The position numbers were made by a program, and so were the translations under genes. The notes beneath the pieces are model-generated. The model was not told the origin of the DNA. It was given only the letters and a program-made list of their open reading frames with translations, and made no database searches. A DNA stretch of 23,647 nucleotides, taken from IMG/VR virus record IMGVR_UViG_2706794675_000002. The stretch is one strand, 5' to 3'. This document shows, one piece after another, positions 1-22,000 of the stretch. How positions within the stretch are numbered: position 1 is the stretch's first letter; every line of letters begins with the position of its first letter. The stretch comes from a virus (lineage: Duplodnaviria; Heunggongvirae; Uroviricota; Caudoviricetes).

Positions 1-200
1 CCACGGGAATATCTGCGGCAGCGGGCTTGTAATGGGTTAAGTGATAACAGATGTCTGGAAATATAGGGGCAAATCCAATCGTCGCCGTATTCCCGTATTA
101 ACAGAGACCGTAGCCCGACGGGGAACTCCTTCTGCGCGAGTGTGCGGGAATAATCAAAAACGATGCACACCGGGGTTACCGGGTACACATATTTCATCAT
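1..200 (-). CDS. partial ORF running off the left edge of the window (first 66 codons), function unknown
   Basis: Reverse strand is open from ATG (complement of 198..200) to position 1 without a stop: MMKYVYPVTPVCIVFDYSRTLAQKEFPVGLRSLLIREYGDDWICPYISRHLL... An in-frame stop lies just upstream of the ATG. Several rare codons and no clear SD, so this could be a chance ORF. Confidence 0.2.
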   Translation of the reverse strand, partial: MMKYVYPVTPVCIVFDYSRTLAQKEFPVGLRSLLIREYGDDWICPYISRHLLSLNPLQARCRRYSR

Positions 201-245
201 GCCAGCGAGTCCGGTTCTGGCACGGAAGAAACCGGACGTTATGAT

Positions 246-656
246 TTAGTGCGGAAATATTTGTGTAGTGTTCTGTATGTTCTCAGTAAAGAGTAATGAA
301 TTATCAAAGGTATAGTAATACCTTTTGTTTTCGTGGATATTTGTAATCCATCTGAAAACCCCTGCTGTAGCAAGATTTTTCCTGTATTCGTAAAATGATA
401 ACTCTCCTGATTTGAATCCTTTTAAGGTGGCTTCTATAAGGCATTTATTTTTTGAAAATCTTACATTTACAACCTTACCCTGTCCTTTTATTAAAACCGT
501 ATTATCGTTTTCAAGAACAAGATGAATATTCTCTGTGGCTAAATAGTAAATGTAATGTGAGACATTGTGACGTTTTAGTTCAGAATAAAACCAGTGATAG
601 TTTAAATTATTTCGCACTTTATCGAATATTTGTTTAAAAATGGCAACCTGAGCCAT
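246..656 (-). CDS. hypothetical protein, AT-rich moron gene (136 aa from the SD-preceded ATG at 656; 141 aa if the first ATG at 671 is used)
   Basis: A 141-codon ORF in visibly AT-rich DNA, where stops are frequent by chance, so the open frame is significant. The second ATG is preceded by GAAGG at the right spacing. Composition contrasts sharply with the GC-richer structural genes. No recognisable catalytic motif and no recalled homolog. Confidence 0.6.
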
Positions 657-713
657 TGTAGTACCTTCCATGTGATATGAGGGGGCGTAGTCTGCACGAT
701 TATCTAAATTGCT

Positions 714-947
714 TCAATCTGGTCTAACCTGTTTTCTGAGCAATTCAGTAATGTCACTCTTTTCTTTGTTTGCTTCAGGCGAAACTCTTTTTTCTGAGCA
801 CAGTCTCCGGCGGCAGGCTTCAATGACCCAGGCTGAGAAATTCCCGGACCCTTTTTGAACAAGAGCGATGTTAATTTGTTCAATCATTTGGTTAGGAAAG
901 CGGATGTTGCGGGTTGTTGTTCTGCGGGTTCTGTTCTTCGTTGACAT
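714..947 (-). CDS. ribbon-helix-helix (Arc/MetJ/CopG-like) DNA-binding protein, 77 aa
   Basis: Translation MSTKNRTRRTTTRNIRFPNQMIEQINIALVQKGSGNFSAWVIEACRRRL... has the RHH layout: N-terminal beta-strand (RNIRFP), helix A, G-S-x-N-x-S turn, helix B. From memory, the DNA for the first ~50 codons is near-identical to the right end of phage lambda, which encodes a 64-aa ORF in the same place; the C-terminus here differs. Confidence 0.55.
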   Translation of the reverse strand: MSTKNRTRRTTTRNIRFPNQMIEQINIALVQKGSGNFSAWVIEACRRRLCSEKRVSPEANKEKSDITELLRKQVRPD

Positions 948-1114
948 GAGGTTGCCCTGTATTCAGTGTCGCTGATTTGTATTGTCTGAAGTTGTTTTTA
1001 CGTTAAGTTGATGCAGATCAATTAATACGATACCTGCGTCATAATTGATTATTTGACGTGGTTTGATGGCGTAGATGCACGTTGTGACATGTAGATGATA
1101 ATTATTATCATTTT

Positions 1115-1335
1115 GCGGGTCCTTTCCGGCGATCCGACAGGTTACGGGGCGGAAGGCGCGCGGGTTTTCGCTATTTATGACAATTTTCCGGTTTAAGGCG
1201 TTTCCGTTCTTCTTCGCCGTAACCTAATGTTTTTATTTAAAACACCCCCTGAAAAGAAAGGAAACGACAGGTGCTGAAAACGGGCTTTTTGGCCTCTGTC
1301 GTTTCCTTTCTCTGTTTTTGTCCGTGGAATGAACA
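1115..1335. other. cos: cos DNA-packaging site (cosQ / cosN / cosB with R3, R2, R1 terminase-binding elements)
   Basis: Sequence ...ccgacaggttacg|gggcgg...cgcgggttttcgctatttatga...ggcgtttccgttcttcttcg...gaaaggaaacgacaggtg...ctgtcgtttcctttctctg... matches the lambda right-end/left-end junction and the repeated CGTTTCC-type R elements immediately upstream of nu1. The presumed nick position is at 1146/1147. Confidence 0.85.
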
Positions 1336-1855
1336 ATGGAAGTCAACAAAAAGCAGCTGGCTGACATTTTCGGTGCGAGTATCCGTACCATTCAGAACTG
1401 GCAGGAACAGGGAATGCCCGTTCTGCGAGGCGGTGGCAAGGGTAATGAGGTGCTTTATGACTCTGCCGCCGTTATAAGATGGTATGCCGAAAGGGATGCT
1501 GAAATTGAGAACGAAAAGCTGCGCCGGGAAGTTGAAGAACTGCGGCAGGCCAGCGAGACAGATCTCCAGCCAGGGACTATTGAGTACGAACGCCATCGAC
1601 TTACGCGTGCGCAGGCCGACGCACAGGAGCTGAAAAATGCCAGAGACTCCGCTGAAGTGGTGGAAACCGCATTCTGTACTTTCGTGCTGTCGCGGATCGC
1701 AGGTGAAATTGCCAGTATTCTCGACGGGATCCCCCTGTCGGTGCAGCGGCGTTTTCCGGAACTGGAAAACCGACATGTTGATTTCCTGAAACGGGATATC
1801 ATCAAAGCCATGAACAAAGCAGCCGCGCTGGATGAACTGATACCGGGGTTGCTGA

Positions 1856-1881
<26 letters not shown>
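1336..1881 (+). CDS. nu1: terminase small subunit (181 aa)
   Basis: ORF translation MEVNKKQLADIFGASIRTIQNWQEQGMPVLRGGGKGNEVLYDSAAVI... is almost identical to lambda Nu1, with the same length and position directly after cosB. Confidence 0.97.
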
Positions 1882-5571
<3,690 letters not shown>

Positions 5572-15451: not shown

Positions 15452-15701
15452 NNNNNNNNNNNNNNNNNNNNNNNNNNNNNNNNNNNNNNNNNNNNNNNNN
15501 NNNNNNNNNNNNNNNNNNNNNNNNNNNNNNNNNNNNNNNNNNNNNNNNNNNNNNNNNNNNNNNNNNNNNNNNNNNNNNNNNNNNNNNNNNNNNNNNNNNN
15601 NNNNNNNNNNNNNNNNNNNNNNNNNNNNNNNNNNNNNNNNNNNNNNNNNNNNNNNNNNNNNNNNNNNNNNNNNNNNNNNNNNNNNNNNNNNNNNNNNNNN
15701 N
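15452..15701. other. run of 250 N; junction between K N-terminus and an unrelated tape-measure C-terminus
   Basis: Literal n characters. The flanking coding sequences cannot be contiguous parts of one gene. Confidence 1.
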
Positions 15702-17847: not shown

Positions 17848-18112
17848 NNNNNNNNNNNNNNNNNNNNNNNNNNNNNNNNNNNNNNNNNNNNNNNNNNNNN
17901 NNNNNNNNNNNNNNNNNNNNNNNNNNNNNNNNNNNNNNNNNNNNNNNNNNNNNNNNNNNNNNNNNNNNNNNNNNNNNNNNNNNNNNNNNNNNNNNNNNNN
18001 NNNNNNNNNNNNNNNNNNNNNNNNNNNNNNNNNNNNNNNNNNNNNNNNNNNNNNNNNNNNNNNNNNNNNNNNNNNNNNNNNNNNNNNNNNNNNNNNNNNN
18101 NNNNNNNNNNNN
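17848..18112. other. run of 265 N; junction between I N-terminus and a third K 3' fragment
   Basis: Literal n characters. Confidence 1.
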
Positions 18113-19015: not shown

Positions 19016-22000
19016 ATGGGTAAAGGCAGCAGTAAGGGGCATACCCCGCGCGAAGCGAAGGACAACCTGAAATCCACGCAGTTGCTGAGTGTGATTGATG
19101 CCATCAGCGAAGGGCCGGTTGACGGTCCGGTGGATGGATTAAAAAGCGTGCTGCTGAACGGTACGCCGGTCCTGGACAGCGAGGGGAAGACAAACCTTTN
19201 NNNNNNNNNNNNNNNNNNNNNNNNNNNNNNNNNNNNNNNNNNNNNNNNNNNNNNNNNNNNNNNNNNNNNNNNNNNNNNNNNNNNNNNNNNNNNNNNNNNN
19301 NNNNNNNNNNNNNNNNNNNNNNNNNNNNNNNNNNNNNNNNNNNNNNNNNNNNNNNNNNNNNNNNNNNNNNNNNNNNNNNNNNNNNNNNNNNNNNNNNNNN
19401 NNNNNNNNNNNNNNNNNNNNNNNNNNNNNNNNNNNNNNNNNNNNNNNNNNNNNNNNNNNNNNNNNNNNNNNNGGAAAAAGACATCACCATTAAGGGCAAA
19501 ACCACTTCGCAGTATCTGGCCTCGGTGGTGGTGGGTAACCTGCCGCCGCGCCCGTTTAATATCCGGATGCGCAGGATGACACCGGACAGCACCACAGACC
19601 AGCTGCAGAACAAAACGCTCTGGTCGTCGTACACCGAAATCATCGATGTGAAACAGTGCTACCCGAACACGGCGCTGGTCGGCGTGCAGGTGGATTCAGA
19701 GCAGTTCGGTAACCAGCAGGTGAGTCGCAATTATCATCTTCGCGGGCGCATTCTGCAGGTGCCGTCGAACTATAACCCGCAGACGCGGCAATACAGCGGT
19801 ATCTGGGACGGAACGCTTAAGCCAGCATACAGCAACAACATGGCCTGGTGTCTGTGGGACATGCTCACTCATCCGCGCTACGGCATGGGGAAACGTCTTG
19901 GTGCGGCAGATGTGGACAAATGGGCGCTGTATGTCATCGGCCAGTACTGCGACCAGTCAGTGACGGACGGATTTGGCGGCACGGAGCCGCGCATCACCTG
20001 TAACTCTTACCTGACCACACAGCGTAAGGCGTGGGATGTTCTCAGTGATTTCTGCTCGGCGATGCGCTGTATGCCGGTATGGAACGGACAGATGCTGACG
20101 TTCGTGCAGGACCGACCGTCGGATAAGGTGTGGACCTATAACCGCAGTAATGTGGTGATGCCGGACGATGGCGCGCCGTTCCGCTACAGCTTCAGCGCCC
20201 TGAAGGACCGCCATAATGCCGTTGAGGTGAACTGGATTGACCCAGATAACGGCTGGGAGACGGCGACAGAGCTTGTGGAGGATACGCAGGCCATTGCCCG
20301 TTACGGTCGTAATGTCACGAAGATGGATGCCTTTGGCTGTACCAGCCGGGGGCAGGCACACCGAGCCGGGCTGTGGCTGATTAAAACGGAACTGCTGGAA
20401 ACGCAGACCGTGGACTTCAGCGTGGNNNNNNNNNNNNNNNNNNNNNNNNNNNNNNNNNNNNNNNNNNNNNNNNNNNNNNNNNNNNNNNNNNNNNNNNNNN
20501 NNNNNNNNNNNNNNNNNNNNNNNNNNNNNNNNNNNNNNNNNNNNNNNNNNNNNNNNNNNNNNNNNNNNNNNNNNNNNNNNNNNNNNNNNNNNNNNNNNNN
20601 NNNNNNNNNNNNNNNNNNNNNNNNNNNNNNNNNNNNNNNNNNNNNNNNNNNNNNNNNNNNNNNNNNNNNNNNNNNNNNNNNNNNNNNNNNNNNNNNNNNA
20701 CGGCGTTGCAGAATACAGCGTGTGGGGGCTGAAGCTGCCGACGCTGCGCCAGCGTCTGTTCCGCTGCGTGAGTATCCGTGAGAACGACGACGGCACGTAT
20801 GCCATCACCGCCGTGCAGCATGTGCCGGAAAAAGAGGCCATCGTGGATAACGGGGCACACTTTGACGGTGACCGGCGCGGCACGGTGAATGGTGTCACGC
20901 CGCCAGCGGTGCAGCATCTGACCGCCGAAGTCACCGCAGACAGCGGGGAATATCAGGTGCTGGCGCGATGGGACACGCCGAAGGTGGTGAAGGGTGTGAG
21001 CTTCCTGCTTCGCCTGACCGTGGCAGCGGACGACGGCAGTGAGCGGCTGGTCAGCACAGCCAGGACGACGGAAACCACATACCGCTTCAGGCAGCTGGCG
21101 CTGGGGAATTACAGTCTGACAGTCCGGGCGGTAAATGCCCGGGGGCAGCAGGGCGATCCGGCGTCGGTATCGTTCCGGATTGCGGCACCGGCAGCGCCTG
21201 TCACTATTGAACTGATACCGGGGTATTTTCAGATAACGGCGGTCCCGAAACTGGCTGTATATGACCCGACGGTGCAGTTTGAGTTCTGGTTTTCGGAAAA
21301 GCGGATTGCGGATATCAGGCAGGTTGAAACCAGCGCCCGCTATCTTGGCACGGCGCTGTACTGGATAGCCGCCAGTATCAATATCAGGCCGGGCCATGAT
21401 TATTATTTTTACGTTCGCAGTGTGAACACCGTTGGCAAATCGGCATTTGTGGAGGCCATCGGTCGGGCGAGCGATGATGCAGAAGGTTATCTGAATTTTT
21501 ATAAAGGGTTGATCAATAAAACGCATCTCGGCAAGGAGTTGTGGACGCAGATTGATAACGGTCAGCTTGCGCCGGACCTGACTGAAATCAGGACGTCCAT
21601 TACGAATGTCAGCAATGAAATCACGCAAACCGTCAATAAAAAACTGGAAAATCAGAGTGCTGCAATCCAGCAGATACAGAAAGTTCAGGTTGATACAAAT
21701 AATAACCTGAACAGCATGTGGGCTGTGAAGCTGCAACAGATGAAGGACGGACGCCTTTATATTGCGGGTATCGGTGCCGGTATTGAGAATACGCCAGCAG
21801 GAATGCAGAGTCAGGTGCTGCTGGCGGCAGACAGGATTGCGATGATTAATCCTGCGAATGGCAACACAAAGCCGATGTTTGTTGGTCAGGGCGATCAGAT
21901 ATTCATGAACGACGTGTTCCTGAAATGCCTGACGGCTCCGACCATTACCAGCGGCGGTAATCCTCCGGCATTTTCCCTGACACCTGGCGGACGGCTGACG

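Follow-up and report, generated by a model that had tools for sequence, protein, structure and literature searches.

The window, a 23,647-nucleotide stretch of Caudoviricetes DNA (IMG/VR record IMGVR_UViG_2706794675_000002), carries near its left end two open reading frames on the minus strand, one encoding 77 amino acids and the other 136 (Table 1). The first is a YnfO-type gene of the DUF3950 family and the second belongs to DUF1398. As both genes are catalogued and are carried by phage lambda and by most E. coli genomes, this ynfO-ydfO-type pair is an ordinary lambdoid locus that was already known; it is neither new cargo nor a toxin-antitoxin pair. DUF1398 matches were found in 5376 of 5426 complete E. 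coli genomes, at full length in 3011, and the N-terminal part of DUF3950 was found in 4184 of the 5426. Both families are counted in the E. coli ‘y-ome’ (PMC11551758), and both reading frames are under purifying selection. As the initial annotation stated, the genes are antisense to late transcription, since cosQ, cosN, and nu1 all lie to their right, and both are AT-rich, with 31.4% GC in the 136-aa gene and 44% in the 77-aa gene compared with 56% in the remainder of the window.

Table 1 Features of the cos-proximal region, in window coordinates
Feature	Position	Strand	Evidence or remark
IS2 end (terminal 77 bp), inserted downstream of the DUF1398 unit and outside the cassette	1..77	.	L051 match
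Conserved element of ~110 nt downstream of the leftward genes	78..190	-	Present in lambda, DLP12, BP-4795, and prophage L008
DUF1398 gene (YdfO/YbcV/lambda p78 family), 136 aa	246..656	-	GGAAGG 7 nt before ATG 656
Putative DUF1398 promoter (element 699..733)	-35 TAGACC 726..721; -10 GATAAT 704..699	-	Promoter scan, 9/12
YnfO-type DUF3950 gene, 77 aa	714..947	-	PF13132, YlcI_YnfO_N; 97% identical to K-12 YnfO
PdhR-box-like palindrome AACAGGTTAGACCAGAT	733..717	-	Overlaps the putative promoter and the last codons and stop of the RHH-like gene
Qin-type-specific 54-nt segment (codons 55-72 of the RHH-like gene)	731..784	-	In place of the 613-bp ybcW/p79 segment of lambda/DLP12
cosQ GGGTCCT	1117-1123	+	Read from the sequence, aligned to the lambda right end
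cosN with variant 12-nt cohesive end GGGCGGAAGGCG	1147-1158	+	Aligned to the lambda right end
nu1, terminase small subunit, first late packaging gene	1336..1881	+	Open reading frame; Nu1/nohD in matching records

The 136-aa protein had been described as lacking any recognised motif, a description that profile searches overturned. It matches Pfam PF07166 (DUF1398) with an E value of 3e-43 and 147 bits (cut-off 22), and the NMR structure of E. coli YdfO (PDB 2HH8) with an E value of 1e-69, which assigns it to the YdfO fold. An alternative in-frame ATG upstream, at 671, would give a 141-aa form, of which residues 13-131 correspond to positions 1-119 of the 119-position profile. The 136-aa protein is ~76% identical to E. 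coli YdfO, YbcV, and lambda p78. The initial annotation would be refuted by a match to a well-characterised family of known function, and by that standard it is only half refuted, since the matches give a named family and a solved structure but not a function. The fold is an orphan one. Its secondary structure is a tandem of two helix-helix-three-strand units, a duplication visible only in the order of the elements; the internal sequence repeat was not significant at the sequence level (P 0.06). An AF2 model built on a shallow alignment (23 sequences, 65-88% identity) reached a pLDDT of 55 and was discarded; this was remedied by a deeper alignment that included homologues of 21-35% identity. 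The protein is soluble and lacks hydrophobic segments, a signal peptide, and membrane segments; the labels attached to lambda p78, ‘putative envelope protein’ and ‘head protein’, found no support in our analyses and are misleading.

The DUF1398 frame is conserved: dN/dS is 0.18-0.35 in comparisons with lambda, YbcV, and YdfO, and the allele of the window recurs in 80 IMG/VR loci at 99-100% protein identity. Phages that carry it include PhiR49_1, Kati, Chlobot, and ev099. The typical position of the gene is leftward, between the lysis cassette or bor and cos-Nu1, as seen in lambda, DLP12, Qin, IH5, prophages L008-L010, and 72 of the 80 IMG/VR loci.

The 77-aa protein scores 72.8 bits against Pfam PF13132 (DUF3950; cut-off 25) and 35.2 bits against NCBIfam YlcI_YnfO_N (NF041551; cut-off 30). 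A basic N-terminal arm is followed by a ribbon-helix-helix (RHH)-like strand-helix-helix at residues ~13-50; the N-terminal 50 residues are the conserved part, and the C-terminal tail is variable and junction-derived. When the YnfO profile was compared by hhalign with Arc, Mnt, CopG, NikR, and RelB, the strand and helix A aligned in the correct register with a score of 20 (P 0.0015, probability only 17%); 200 column shuffles of the same comparison gave 8.9 +/- 2.1, and none reached 20. No RHH family was returned by a Pfam scan of 17 DUF3950 family members at E <= 10, nor did the RHH profile match any PDB sequence at E <= 10. YnfO is similar to the Arc/Mnt/CopG repressors in its small size, its basic N-terminal arm, and its strand-helix-loop(G-x-N/S)-helix register, but it differs from them in having no significant sequence-family membership and in an arrangement that is not immI-like divergent. 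The initial annotation called it a clear RHH protein; judged by the register match, the assignment is plausible but not clear, as Pfam and NCBIfam place the protein in DUF3950/YlcI_YnfO only. An analogy with immI (Mnt/Arc-ant) was rejected: ant, where it occurs (BP-4795), is convergent with the RHH-like gene but separated from it, and it is absent from lambda. Inverted repeats lie upstream of the RHH-like gene of the window, at 1017-1049 and 1095-1111, and a search there for a leftward promoter gave nothing convincing, the top candidate scoring 8/12.

On the other side of the pair, locus L051 is identical to window positions 1-260 and runs on into complete IS2 orfA/orfB, and the homology to lambda and 79 other loci begins at 77/78. 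The conserved element that follows is kept whichever leftward gene precedes it. On the minus strand it contains a terminator-like hairpin (189-164) followed by a U-run (163-149), with a fold z of -2.8, a consensus-level prediction; a further hairpin lies at 237-209. Covariation within the element was slight and nowhere convincing, and Rfam returned nothing credible within window positions 1-1500. The open reading frame at 41-244(+), which has a PHROG ‘Rz-like spanin’ match, was rejected as a gene, since its start falls within the IS2 end and its frame overlaps the conserved non-coding element. To the right, the variant cohesive end is common to 5 of 68 fetched loci.

The closest known counterpart is ynfO-ydfO (b4533, b1549) in the K-12 Qin prophage, with the same order, orientation, 57-nt spacer, and Nu1-homologue neighbour. 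It differs from the window in three respects: the DUF1398 alleles differ at 24% of residues, the pair in the window belongs to a prophage whose lambda-like late operon is complete whereas Qin is a deleted remnant, and in the window IS2 is inserted just downstream of the pair. Lambda itself carries both genes. The initial annotation had taken the 136-aa gene to be foreign to lambda, the product of a cargo swap; in fact lambda p78 is its orthologue, 82.6% identical in nucleotide sequence over window 77-730, 76% identical in protein, and equally AT-rich (32.6% GC). The DUF3950 protein is 94.5% identical to its lambda counterpart over 55 aa; the lambda ORF is ylcI-like and is not annotated in NC_001416. 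In both lambda/DLP12 (ybcV-ybcW-ylcI) and the window, both genes point leftward and are located between bor/Rz and cos, and low GC and the upstream palindrome of the DUF1398 gene are shared. However, lambda/DLP12 have 613 bp with the rightward ybcW/p79 between the two genes where the window has 54 bp, and their RHH-like protein has 64 aa rather than 77 and a different C-terminal tail, with bor downstream, which the window lacks. The BLAST blocks place window 77-730 at L001 1501-2153 and window 785-1400 at L001 2767-3382. Alignment to lambda, proposed as a way of finding the replacement boundaries, thus located the difference at window 731-784, and the 136-aa gene is not part of what was replaced.

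Several elements surrounding the DUF1398 gene suggest that it may have its own transcription. The promoter scan yielded four sites where 3.5 are expected by chance, and the promoter is a consensus-level prediction. The palindrome that overlaps it is conserved in front of ydfO, ybcV, and lambda p78, where it forms the boundary of the shared block. PdhR SELEX-chip peaks have been reported at both K-12 copies, in the ybcV-ybcW spacer and at the ynfO/ydfO locus (PMC7660256); the Qin peak was placed on the palindrome by our own coordinate conversion between K-12 genome versions. In a pdhR mutant, ybcV mRNA was down 10-fold (PMC7660256), and ydfO was induced 12- to 116-fold by ionic liquid (PMC4077768). 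The K-12 copies are thus transcribed from cryptic prophages under host control, through PdhR and ionic-liquid stress (PMC7660256, PMC4077768); these qPCR and microarray data concern ybcV and ydfO, which are another allele than that of the window. YdfO overexpression is cited in PMC4077768 as protective, raising oxidative-stress resistance; the statement could not be traced in the main text of PMC3105296, its presumed source. Lambda p78 was non-essential by CRISPRi (PMC10695390).

The DUF1398 block comprises a gene of low GC, an upstream palindrome with a promoter-like site, and a downstream hairpin with a U-run, which travel together, and it looks like a self-contained moron, with promoter and terminator both predicted from sequence. 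Its base composition deviates as in a moron (31% against 56% GC), and its presence at the junction is variable: lambda and the window have the gene there, and phage 434 and BP-4795 lack it. In lambda, bor occupies a slot of the same kind, antisense to the late operon like the genes of the window, and bor/lom and the DUF1398 gene have in common deviant base composition, dispensability for lytic growth, and a self-contained unit anatomy, which for DUF1398 is a predicted one. Bor and Lom are outer-membrane proteins whose phenotypes are serum resistance and adhesion. Unlike them, the DUF1398 protein has neither a signal peptide nor a membrane segment. The moron layout proposed earlier thus survives in part, in the leftward, antisense genes, the bor-type slot between lysis cassette and cos, and the anatomy of the DUF1398 unit; the cargo swap and an obligate paired system do not.

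Whether the two genes form a system depends on how they travel. In phage records, tblastn found DUF1398 in 43 and DUF3950 in 155. In phage 434, DUF3950 is followed directly by bor, with no DUF1398; in BP-4795, it lies without DUF1398 beside an HNH/TerS packaging module of another type, and the Stx phages also have DUF3950 without DUF1398. Conversely, prophages L008-L010 carry a 27%-identical DUF1398 between Rz and Nu1 with no DUF3950, and the chromosomal DUF1398 genes of Pseudocitrobacter and its relatives have no RHH gene nearby. Each gene thus occurs without the other, and in lambda/DLP12 ~600 bp with an opposite-strand gene part them, which contradicts an obligate pair. On the sequence comparisons made here, the region is probably two separate catalogued accessory genes in the Qin-type order (nohA-ynfO-ydfO), not a coupled two-gene system. 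With the allele of the window, DUF3950 adjoins DUF1398 in 77 of 80 IMG/VR loci, the other three showing no RHH match, which may reflect missing flanks. Since the genes are always adjacent in this allele, co-transcription or a regulator-target relation may still hold in the Qin-type arrangement. A read-through fusion was also considered, as in the window no further stop intervenes between the RHH stop and the in-frame DUF1398 start and databases contain 233-aa ‘fusions’ with W at the RHH stop (P0014). It was rejected because the frame is lost in 37 of 77 related loci, where the spacer is 1 nt shorter; the W is most likely due to gene calling that reads TGA as Trp on short contigs.

The alternative that survives best is a regulator-effector pair in which YnfO represses or activates the downstream DUF1398 gene, the two acting as a single unit where the order is Qin-type. 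The genes are co-oriented, no terminator lies in the 57-nt spacer, they are adjacent in all 77 IMG/VR loci showing both and in K-12 Qin, and the palindrome between them is in a possible operator position. We nevertheless consider this reading unlikely. The palindrome matches the box of PdhR, a GntR-type regulator with peaks at the K-12 copies (PMC7660256), and in lambda/DLP12 it stays with the DUF1398 gene while the RHH-like gene is ~600 bp away across the opposite-strand gene. Moreover, more than 100 phages without DUF1398 retain DUF3950, and DUF1398 is found without DUF3950.

There is also a slim chance that the DUF1398 protein is a lysogen-expressed anti-phage effector, acting in superinfection exclusion or abortive infection, or an anti-defence effector. 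Its place in the moron slot next to bor, the strong divergence of its alleles at the same position (27% to 100% identity), the several paralogues per genome, the orphan fold, and the fairly relaxed dN/dS would all be consistent with such a role. However, the defence function suggested for the cassette gained nothing from PADLOC-DB 2.0, which returned no defence family, its sole match being Csx23 at E 0.025 for DUF1398, with nothing for the RHH-like protein. Chromosomal homologues lie in non-defence contexts, beside an aryl-polyene cluster or a fimbrial operon, and the literature searched did not link DUF1398, ybcV, or ydfO to phage resistance, apart from one phage-resistant APEC mutant in which ydfO had been lost along with several other genes (PMC8711792).

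A type II toxin-antitoxin system, in which an upstream RHH antitoxin would be paired with a downstream DUF1398 toxin, is very improbable. The gene order does resemble that layout, both genes being small and on one strand with the RHH-like gene first, and the RHH-like protein has a weak PHROG match to a HicB-like family (E 0.055). Against this, such systems are tight bicistronic operons whose genes co-occur obligately, whereas here each gene occurs alone, the 57-nt gap contains a promoter-like site, and in lambda/DLP12 the coding regions are 656 to about 670 nt apart, 613 bp of this being unique to that arrangement, with an opposite-strand gene between them. Neither protein matched a toxin family in Pfam, NCBIfam, or PADLOC, and chromosomal paralogues such as ycgX stand alone. 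YdfO was made in amounts sufficient for an NMR structure (2HH8), and its overexpression is cited as protective, not toxic (PMC4077768).

Hardly tenable, finally, is the idea that the 77-aa ORF is conserved through overlap with cis-acting DNA near cos and not as a protein: cosQ is ~170 bp away, the 785-1400 block matches lambda at 95% of nucleotides, non-coding parts included, and NC_001416 does not annotate its counterpart, but minimal cos function needs cosQ-cosN-cosB only, Pfam and NCBIfam families exist for the protein, dN is below dS in 7 of 10 pairwise comparisons over the first 50 codons (the remaining three, all with IH5, contain no synonymous differences), and the frame and the strand-helix-helix motif are kept both in 66%-identical homologues with another packaging module (Stx phages, BP-4795) and in a 40%-identical homologue in vB_KppS-Ant.

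From a biological perspective, we favor two accessory genes for which the following model can be proposed. YnfO would be a small dimeric DNA-binding protein with a predicted RHH fold, which probably regulates leftward cos-proximal transcription; in the Qin-type arrangement, transcription under its control could read through into the DUF1398 gene. The latter would be expressed from the repressed prophage through its own sigma-70 promoter, with host control via the PdhR box, and would be silenced during lytic growth by convergent late transcription. Its product may bind a host or phage macromolecule in the cytoplasm and may give a conditional, stress-related benefit; it would be neither a toxin nor a virion or envelope component. 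One can imagine, as an outside chance, that the DUF1398 protein is a lysogen effector directed against incoming phages or a host stress pathway and controlled by YnfO in the Qin-type arrangement. If so, most E. coli genomes would carry, in the cos-proximal slot, a conditional module for defence or fitness that has gone unrecognised.

As a finding, the region itself carries little weight: it is a standard ynfO-ydfO/ylcI-ybcV region. What the analysis does provide is a correction of the labels of lambda p78, and the interest that remains is general, as the DUF1398 fold has been solved and is yet an orphan. Because lambda carries both genes, learning what they do would close one of the few gaps left in the lambda map.

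Both genes of the cassette belong to known families. The 136-aa protein, in which the initial annotation recognised no motif, covers the entire DUF1398 profile (Pfam PF07166, E 3e-43), and has a match in PDB 2HH8, the E. coli YdfO structure solved by NMR (E 1.4e-69). Its sequence identity is 76% with both YdfO and lambda p78 and 78% with YbcV of DLP12. The 77-aa protein is a member of the YlcI/YnfO family (Pfam PF13132, DUF3950, 72.8 bits for a cut-off of 25; NCBIfam NF041551, 35.2 bits for a cut-off of 30) and is 97% identical to K-12 YnfO. The ynfO-ydfO pair of the K-12 Qin prophage equals the pair in the window in order, orientation, 57-nt spacer, and Nu1-homologue neighbour. The ORF scan and the GC content (31.4% for the 136-aa gene and 44.4% for the 77-aa gene vs 56.4% for the remainder of the window) bore out the positions, strand, and AT-richness first assigned to both ORFs. 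An alternative in-frame ATG at 671 would extend the DUF1398 protein to 141 aa; the ATG at 656 has GGAAGG 7 nt upstream and is also the start chosen in the lambda and K-12 annotations.

Features of the cos-proximal region, with positions in the window
Feature	Position	Strand or place	Basis and remarks
IS2 terminal 77 bp	1-77	left window end	100%-identical IMG/VR contig L051 runs on into IS2
Conserved element, ~110 nt	78-190		holds hairpin 2 and U-run on (-)
Hairpin 2	189-164	(-)	then UCGUUUUUGAUUAUU (U-run) at 163-149
Hairpin 1	237-209	(-)	downstream of DUF1398 stop; fold prediction
136-aa ORF (DUF1398)	246-656	(-)	ORF scan
Promoter-like site	-35 TAGACC 726..721; -10 GATAAT 704..699	(-)	promoter scan, 9/12
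Palindrome AACAGGTTAGACCAGAT	733..717	(-)	overlaps -35; matches PdhR box AATTGGTnnnACCAATT
77-aa ORF (DUF3950)	714-947	(-)	ORF scan
cosQ GGGTCCT	1117-1123	left of nu1	read from sequence; placed by alignment to lambda right end
cosN	1147-1158	left of nu1	placed by alignment to lambda right end
nu1	start 1336	(+)	ORF

The window is a segment of a lambda-like prophage, with the large terminase subunit gene after nu1 in the ORF scan. Its 12-nt cosN cohesive end reads GGGCGGAAGGCG vs GGGCGGCGACCT in lambda, with five of the last six bases different; cosQ and the cos flanks are lambda-like. The cosN variant is common to 5 of the 68 related loci examined. The IS2 end marks an insertion that separates the DUF1398 unit from the lysis-side genes. 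Beyond the match, contig L051 carries complete IS2 orfA/orfB, followed by ORFs of 85 aa and 165 aa (the latter of KilA-N-like appearance, judged by eye), Rz, and lysozyme. Five runs of N, 250-274 bases each (3140-3389, 15452-15701, 17848-18112, 19200-19472, and 20426-20699), are masking, not biology, the first of them breaking the large terminase gene.

Both genes are present in lambda and DLP12 too, arranged differently from the window: DUF1398 (p78/ybcV) is followed by a rightward ybcW/p79, a 64-aa DUF3950 gene (ylcI), and cos, the ylcI-type gene being unannotated in lambda NC_001416. Two BLAST blocks align the window to lambda, 77-730 at 82.6% identity and 785-1400 at 95.0%. The stretch that separates them is 613 bp in lambda and 54 bp (731-784) in the window, where it codes for residues 55-72 of the 77-aa protein. 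The palindrome GGT(C/T)AGACC, then AGATTGAA, is exactly where the left block starts; in the window this palindrome forms the last codons and stop of the DUF3950 gene, whereas in lambda it is non-coding and upstream of p78. The initial annotation had proposed a cargo swap, and the alignment does map a replacement, but at 731-784, where it affects the tail of the DUF3950 gene and the segment with ybcW. The 136-aa gene was not swapped: its counterpart is p78, which lies in the 82.6% block and, at 32.6% GC, is as AT-rich.

The 77-aa protein had been described as a clear ribbon-helix-helix (RHH) protein. Conservation in the DUF3950 family is limited to the first ~50 residues, with C-terminal tails that vary among 61-, 64-, 66-, 74-, and 77-aa versions. 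In the conserved part, the basic arm MSTKNRTRRTTTRN leads into a short strand (IRFP); the helix NQMIEQINIAL comes next, and a G-x-G-N turn joins it to a second helix, FSAWVIEACRRRL. This order reads as the RHH pattern. In a profile-profile comparison (hhalign) with the N-termini of Arc, Mnt, CopG, NikR, and RelB, five sequences entered by hand, residues 11-40 aligned to Arc 8-37 in the right register. The score was 20.0 vs 8.9 +/- 2.1 (maximum 16.6) for 200 column-shuffled templates, but the hhalign probability was only 17%, and the family had no match among Pfam RHH models or PDB sequences. The protein is likely RHH-like, although not proven to be so, and "clear" was too strong a word.

We favor two independent accessory genes over one coupled system. 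The 136-aa protein is encoded at 99-100% identity in 80 IMG/VR loci, and the window gene, its lambda counterpart, YbcV, and YdfO give pairwise dN/dS values of 0.18-0.35; the frame is kept intact in relatives and is under purifying selection. This allele is always next to the DUF3950 gene, with both genes in 77 of the 80 loci and the complete order nu1, DUF3950, DUF1398, Rz in 72. Beyond this allele, either gene can be found without the other. In phage records, tblastn located DUF1398 in 43 and DUF3950 in 155. DUF3950 is followed directly by bor in phage 434, stands without DUF1398 in BP-4795, divergent from an HNH-TerS-TerL packaging module of another type, and is represented in vB_KppS-Ant, a 16.5-kb induced element, by an unannotated homologue (40% identity) at a long distance from any DUF1398. 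A 27%-identical DUF1398 occupies the equivalent Rz-Nu1 slot without DUF3950 in E. coli prophages (L008-L010), chromosomal DUF1398 genes adjoin an aryl-polyene cluster (Pseudocitrobacter-like genomes) or a fimbrial operon with no RHH gene, and the third K-12 paralogue, ycgX, stands alone.

A regulator-effector pair is an unlikely reading of the locus, and an anti-phage or anti-defence effector is somewhat less likely again. Neither protein matched a toxin or defence family (Pfam, NCBIfam, PADLOC). The toxin-antitoxin module suggested at the outset is very improbable, since each gene is found alone in the wider family, ~670 nt plus an opposite-strand gene separate the pair in lambda, no toxin or defence family matched, and YdfO was overproduced for NMR. 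That the DUF3950 gene is instead conserved non-coding DNA is just as remote. The DUF3950 stop TGA (716-714) and the DUF1398 start share one frame with no further stop between them (656-716), and public protein sets hold 233-aa and 177-aa "fusions" with W at the TGA (P0014, 761 members; P0010). Read-through of this UGA was rejected on account of a length polymorphism in the spacer C-run, which is 1 nt shorter, with the frame broken, in 37 of 77 related loci; the W most likely reflects code-4 gene calling on short contigs.

The vB_KppS-Ant homologue (LR881103.1; L095 2501-2674) is 58 aa long with an intact motif, in a satellite-like element; it sits antisense inside an annotated 324-aa hypothetical CDS, and one of the two overlapping gene calls is probably wrong. 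The DUF1398 homologues of Pseudocitrobacter and relatives (L005-L007 and L011 gene 6001-6468; 26-27% identity) directly follow the aryl-polyene cluster (MMPL, DUF3261, KAS, ApeP-like, KR, ACPS). Most of them as called, not that of L011, have an N-terminal hydrophobic segment that the phage proteins do not have; it may serve as a membrane anchor, or the start may have been called wrongly. In the 136-aa protein no hydrophobic segment was found (highest 19-residue Kyte-Doolittle mean, 0.39).

The DUF1398 gene may have its own regulatory signals. The promoter-like site lies between the end of the DUF3950 gene and the DUF1398 start, in a scan that as a whole was at chance level (4 found vs 3.5 expected). 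By SELEX-chip in K-12, PdhR was located at the corresponding ybcV-ybcW spacer sequence AtcTGGTctgACCtcTT and at the ynfO/ydfO locus sequence AAcaGGTcagACCAgaT, and ybcV mRNA was down 10-fold in a pdhR mutant (PMC7660256); the placement of the Qin peak, at the 3' end of ynfO, depends on our own conversion between K-12 coordinate versions. No convincing leftward promoter for the DUF3950 gene was found between 948 and cosQ (top candidate, 8/12); inverted repeats upstream of this gene (1017-1049 and 1095-1111) are candidate operators. The downstream hairpin region has a fold z-score of -2.8. In lambda, DLP12, BP-4795, L008, and further prophages, the conserved element immediately follows Rz or bor regardless of the leftward gene beside it (counterparts at 1501-1615 in L001, the lambda sequence, 2930-3075 in L093, and 6430-6600 in L008). 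Its minus-strand hairpin plus U-run is conserved, covariation is low, and Rfam gave no match. We read it as a leftward terminator; it may also be a bidirectional one, or something else or more. Low GC, a putative private promoter region and terminator, and presence/absence polymorphism give the DUF1398 unit the anatomy of a moron. The original observation is borne out in part; of its interpretation, the moron slot is partly supported, but not the cargo swap, toxin-antitoxin, or defence roles.

DUF1398 is a small, essentially enterobacterial family (189 clusters at 50% identity among 1.84 billion representatives, E <= 0.001). Many database entries of DUF1398 and DUF3950 (P0019-P0119, P0135, P0147, P0179, and P0202) are on ~3.5-kb contigs or carry attributions to Bacillus, Staphylococcus, a Campylobacter phage (CJLB-4), or a spider. 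Their near-identity to lambda suggests contamination with lambda control DNA (~3.6-kb right-end amplicon) plus sequencing errors, which inflates the taxonomic range that the two families seem to have. Lambda p78 carries the label "putative envelope protein" in GenBank and, from PHROG 413, the label "head protein", now on NC_001416; the gene is labelled in these ways in other RefSeq phage records as well. Nothing tested here supports these labels: signal peptide and membrane segment are both absent from the protein, the gene is not part of the head gene cluster, and CRISPRi showed it to be dispensable (PMC10695390).

Both ynfO and ydfO were among the uncharacterised K-12 genes in a 2024 list (PMC11551758), and no consistent inference was reached for ycgX in 2025 (PMC12356324). 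In exponential phase, the ionic liquid [C2mim]Cl induced ydfO 12-fold by microarray and 116-fold by qPCR (PMC4077768). Overexpression of ydfO is cited there as raising oxidative-stress resistance, a statement that we did not find in the main text of its presumed source paper. In the model that we propose, DUF1398 is a moron under host regulation, expressed in the lysogen, whose soluble, internally duplicated product would bind some host or phage macromolecule in the cytoplasm. Its benefit would be conditional and stress-related, and convergent late transcription would shut it off in lytic growth. YnfO would be a small RHH-type DNA-binding protein regulating leftward, cos-proximal transcription, and its transcript may, where the genes are arranged as in Qin, continue into DUF1398. 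What is shown is the family identity and the independence of the two genes; promoter, terminator, RHH fold, and all functional statements are inferred. The locus itself is already known and ordinary, and lambda itself carries both families.
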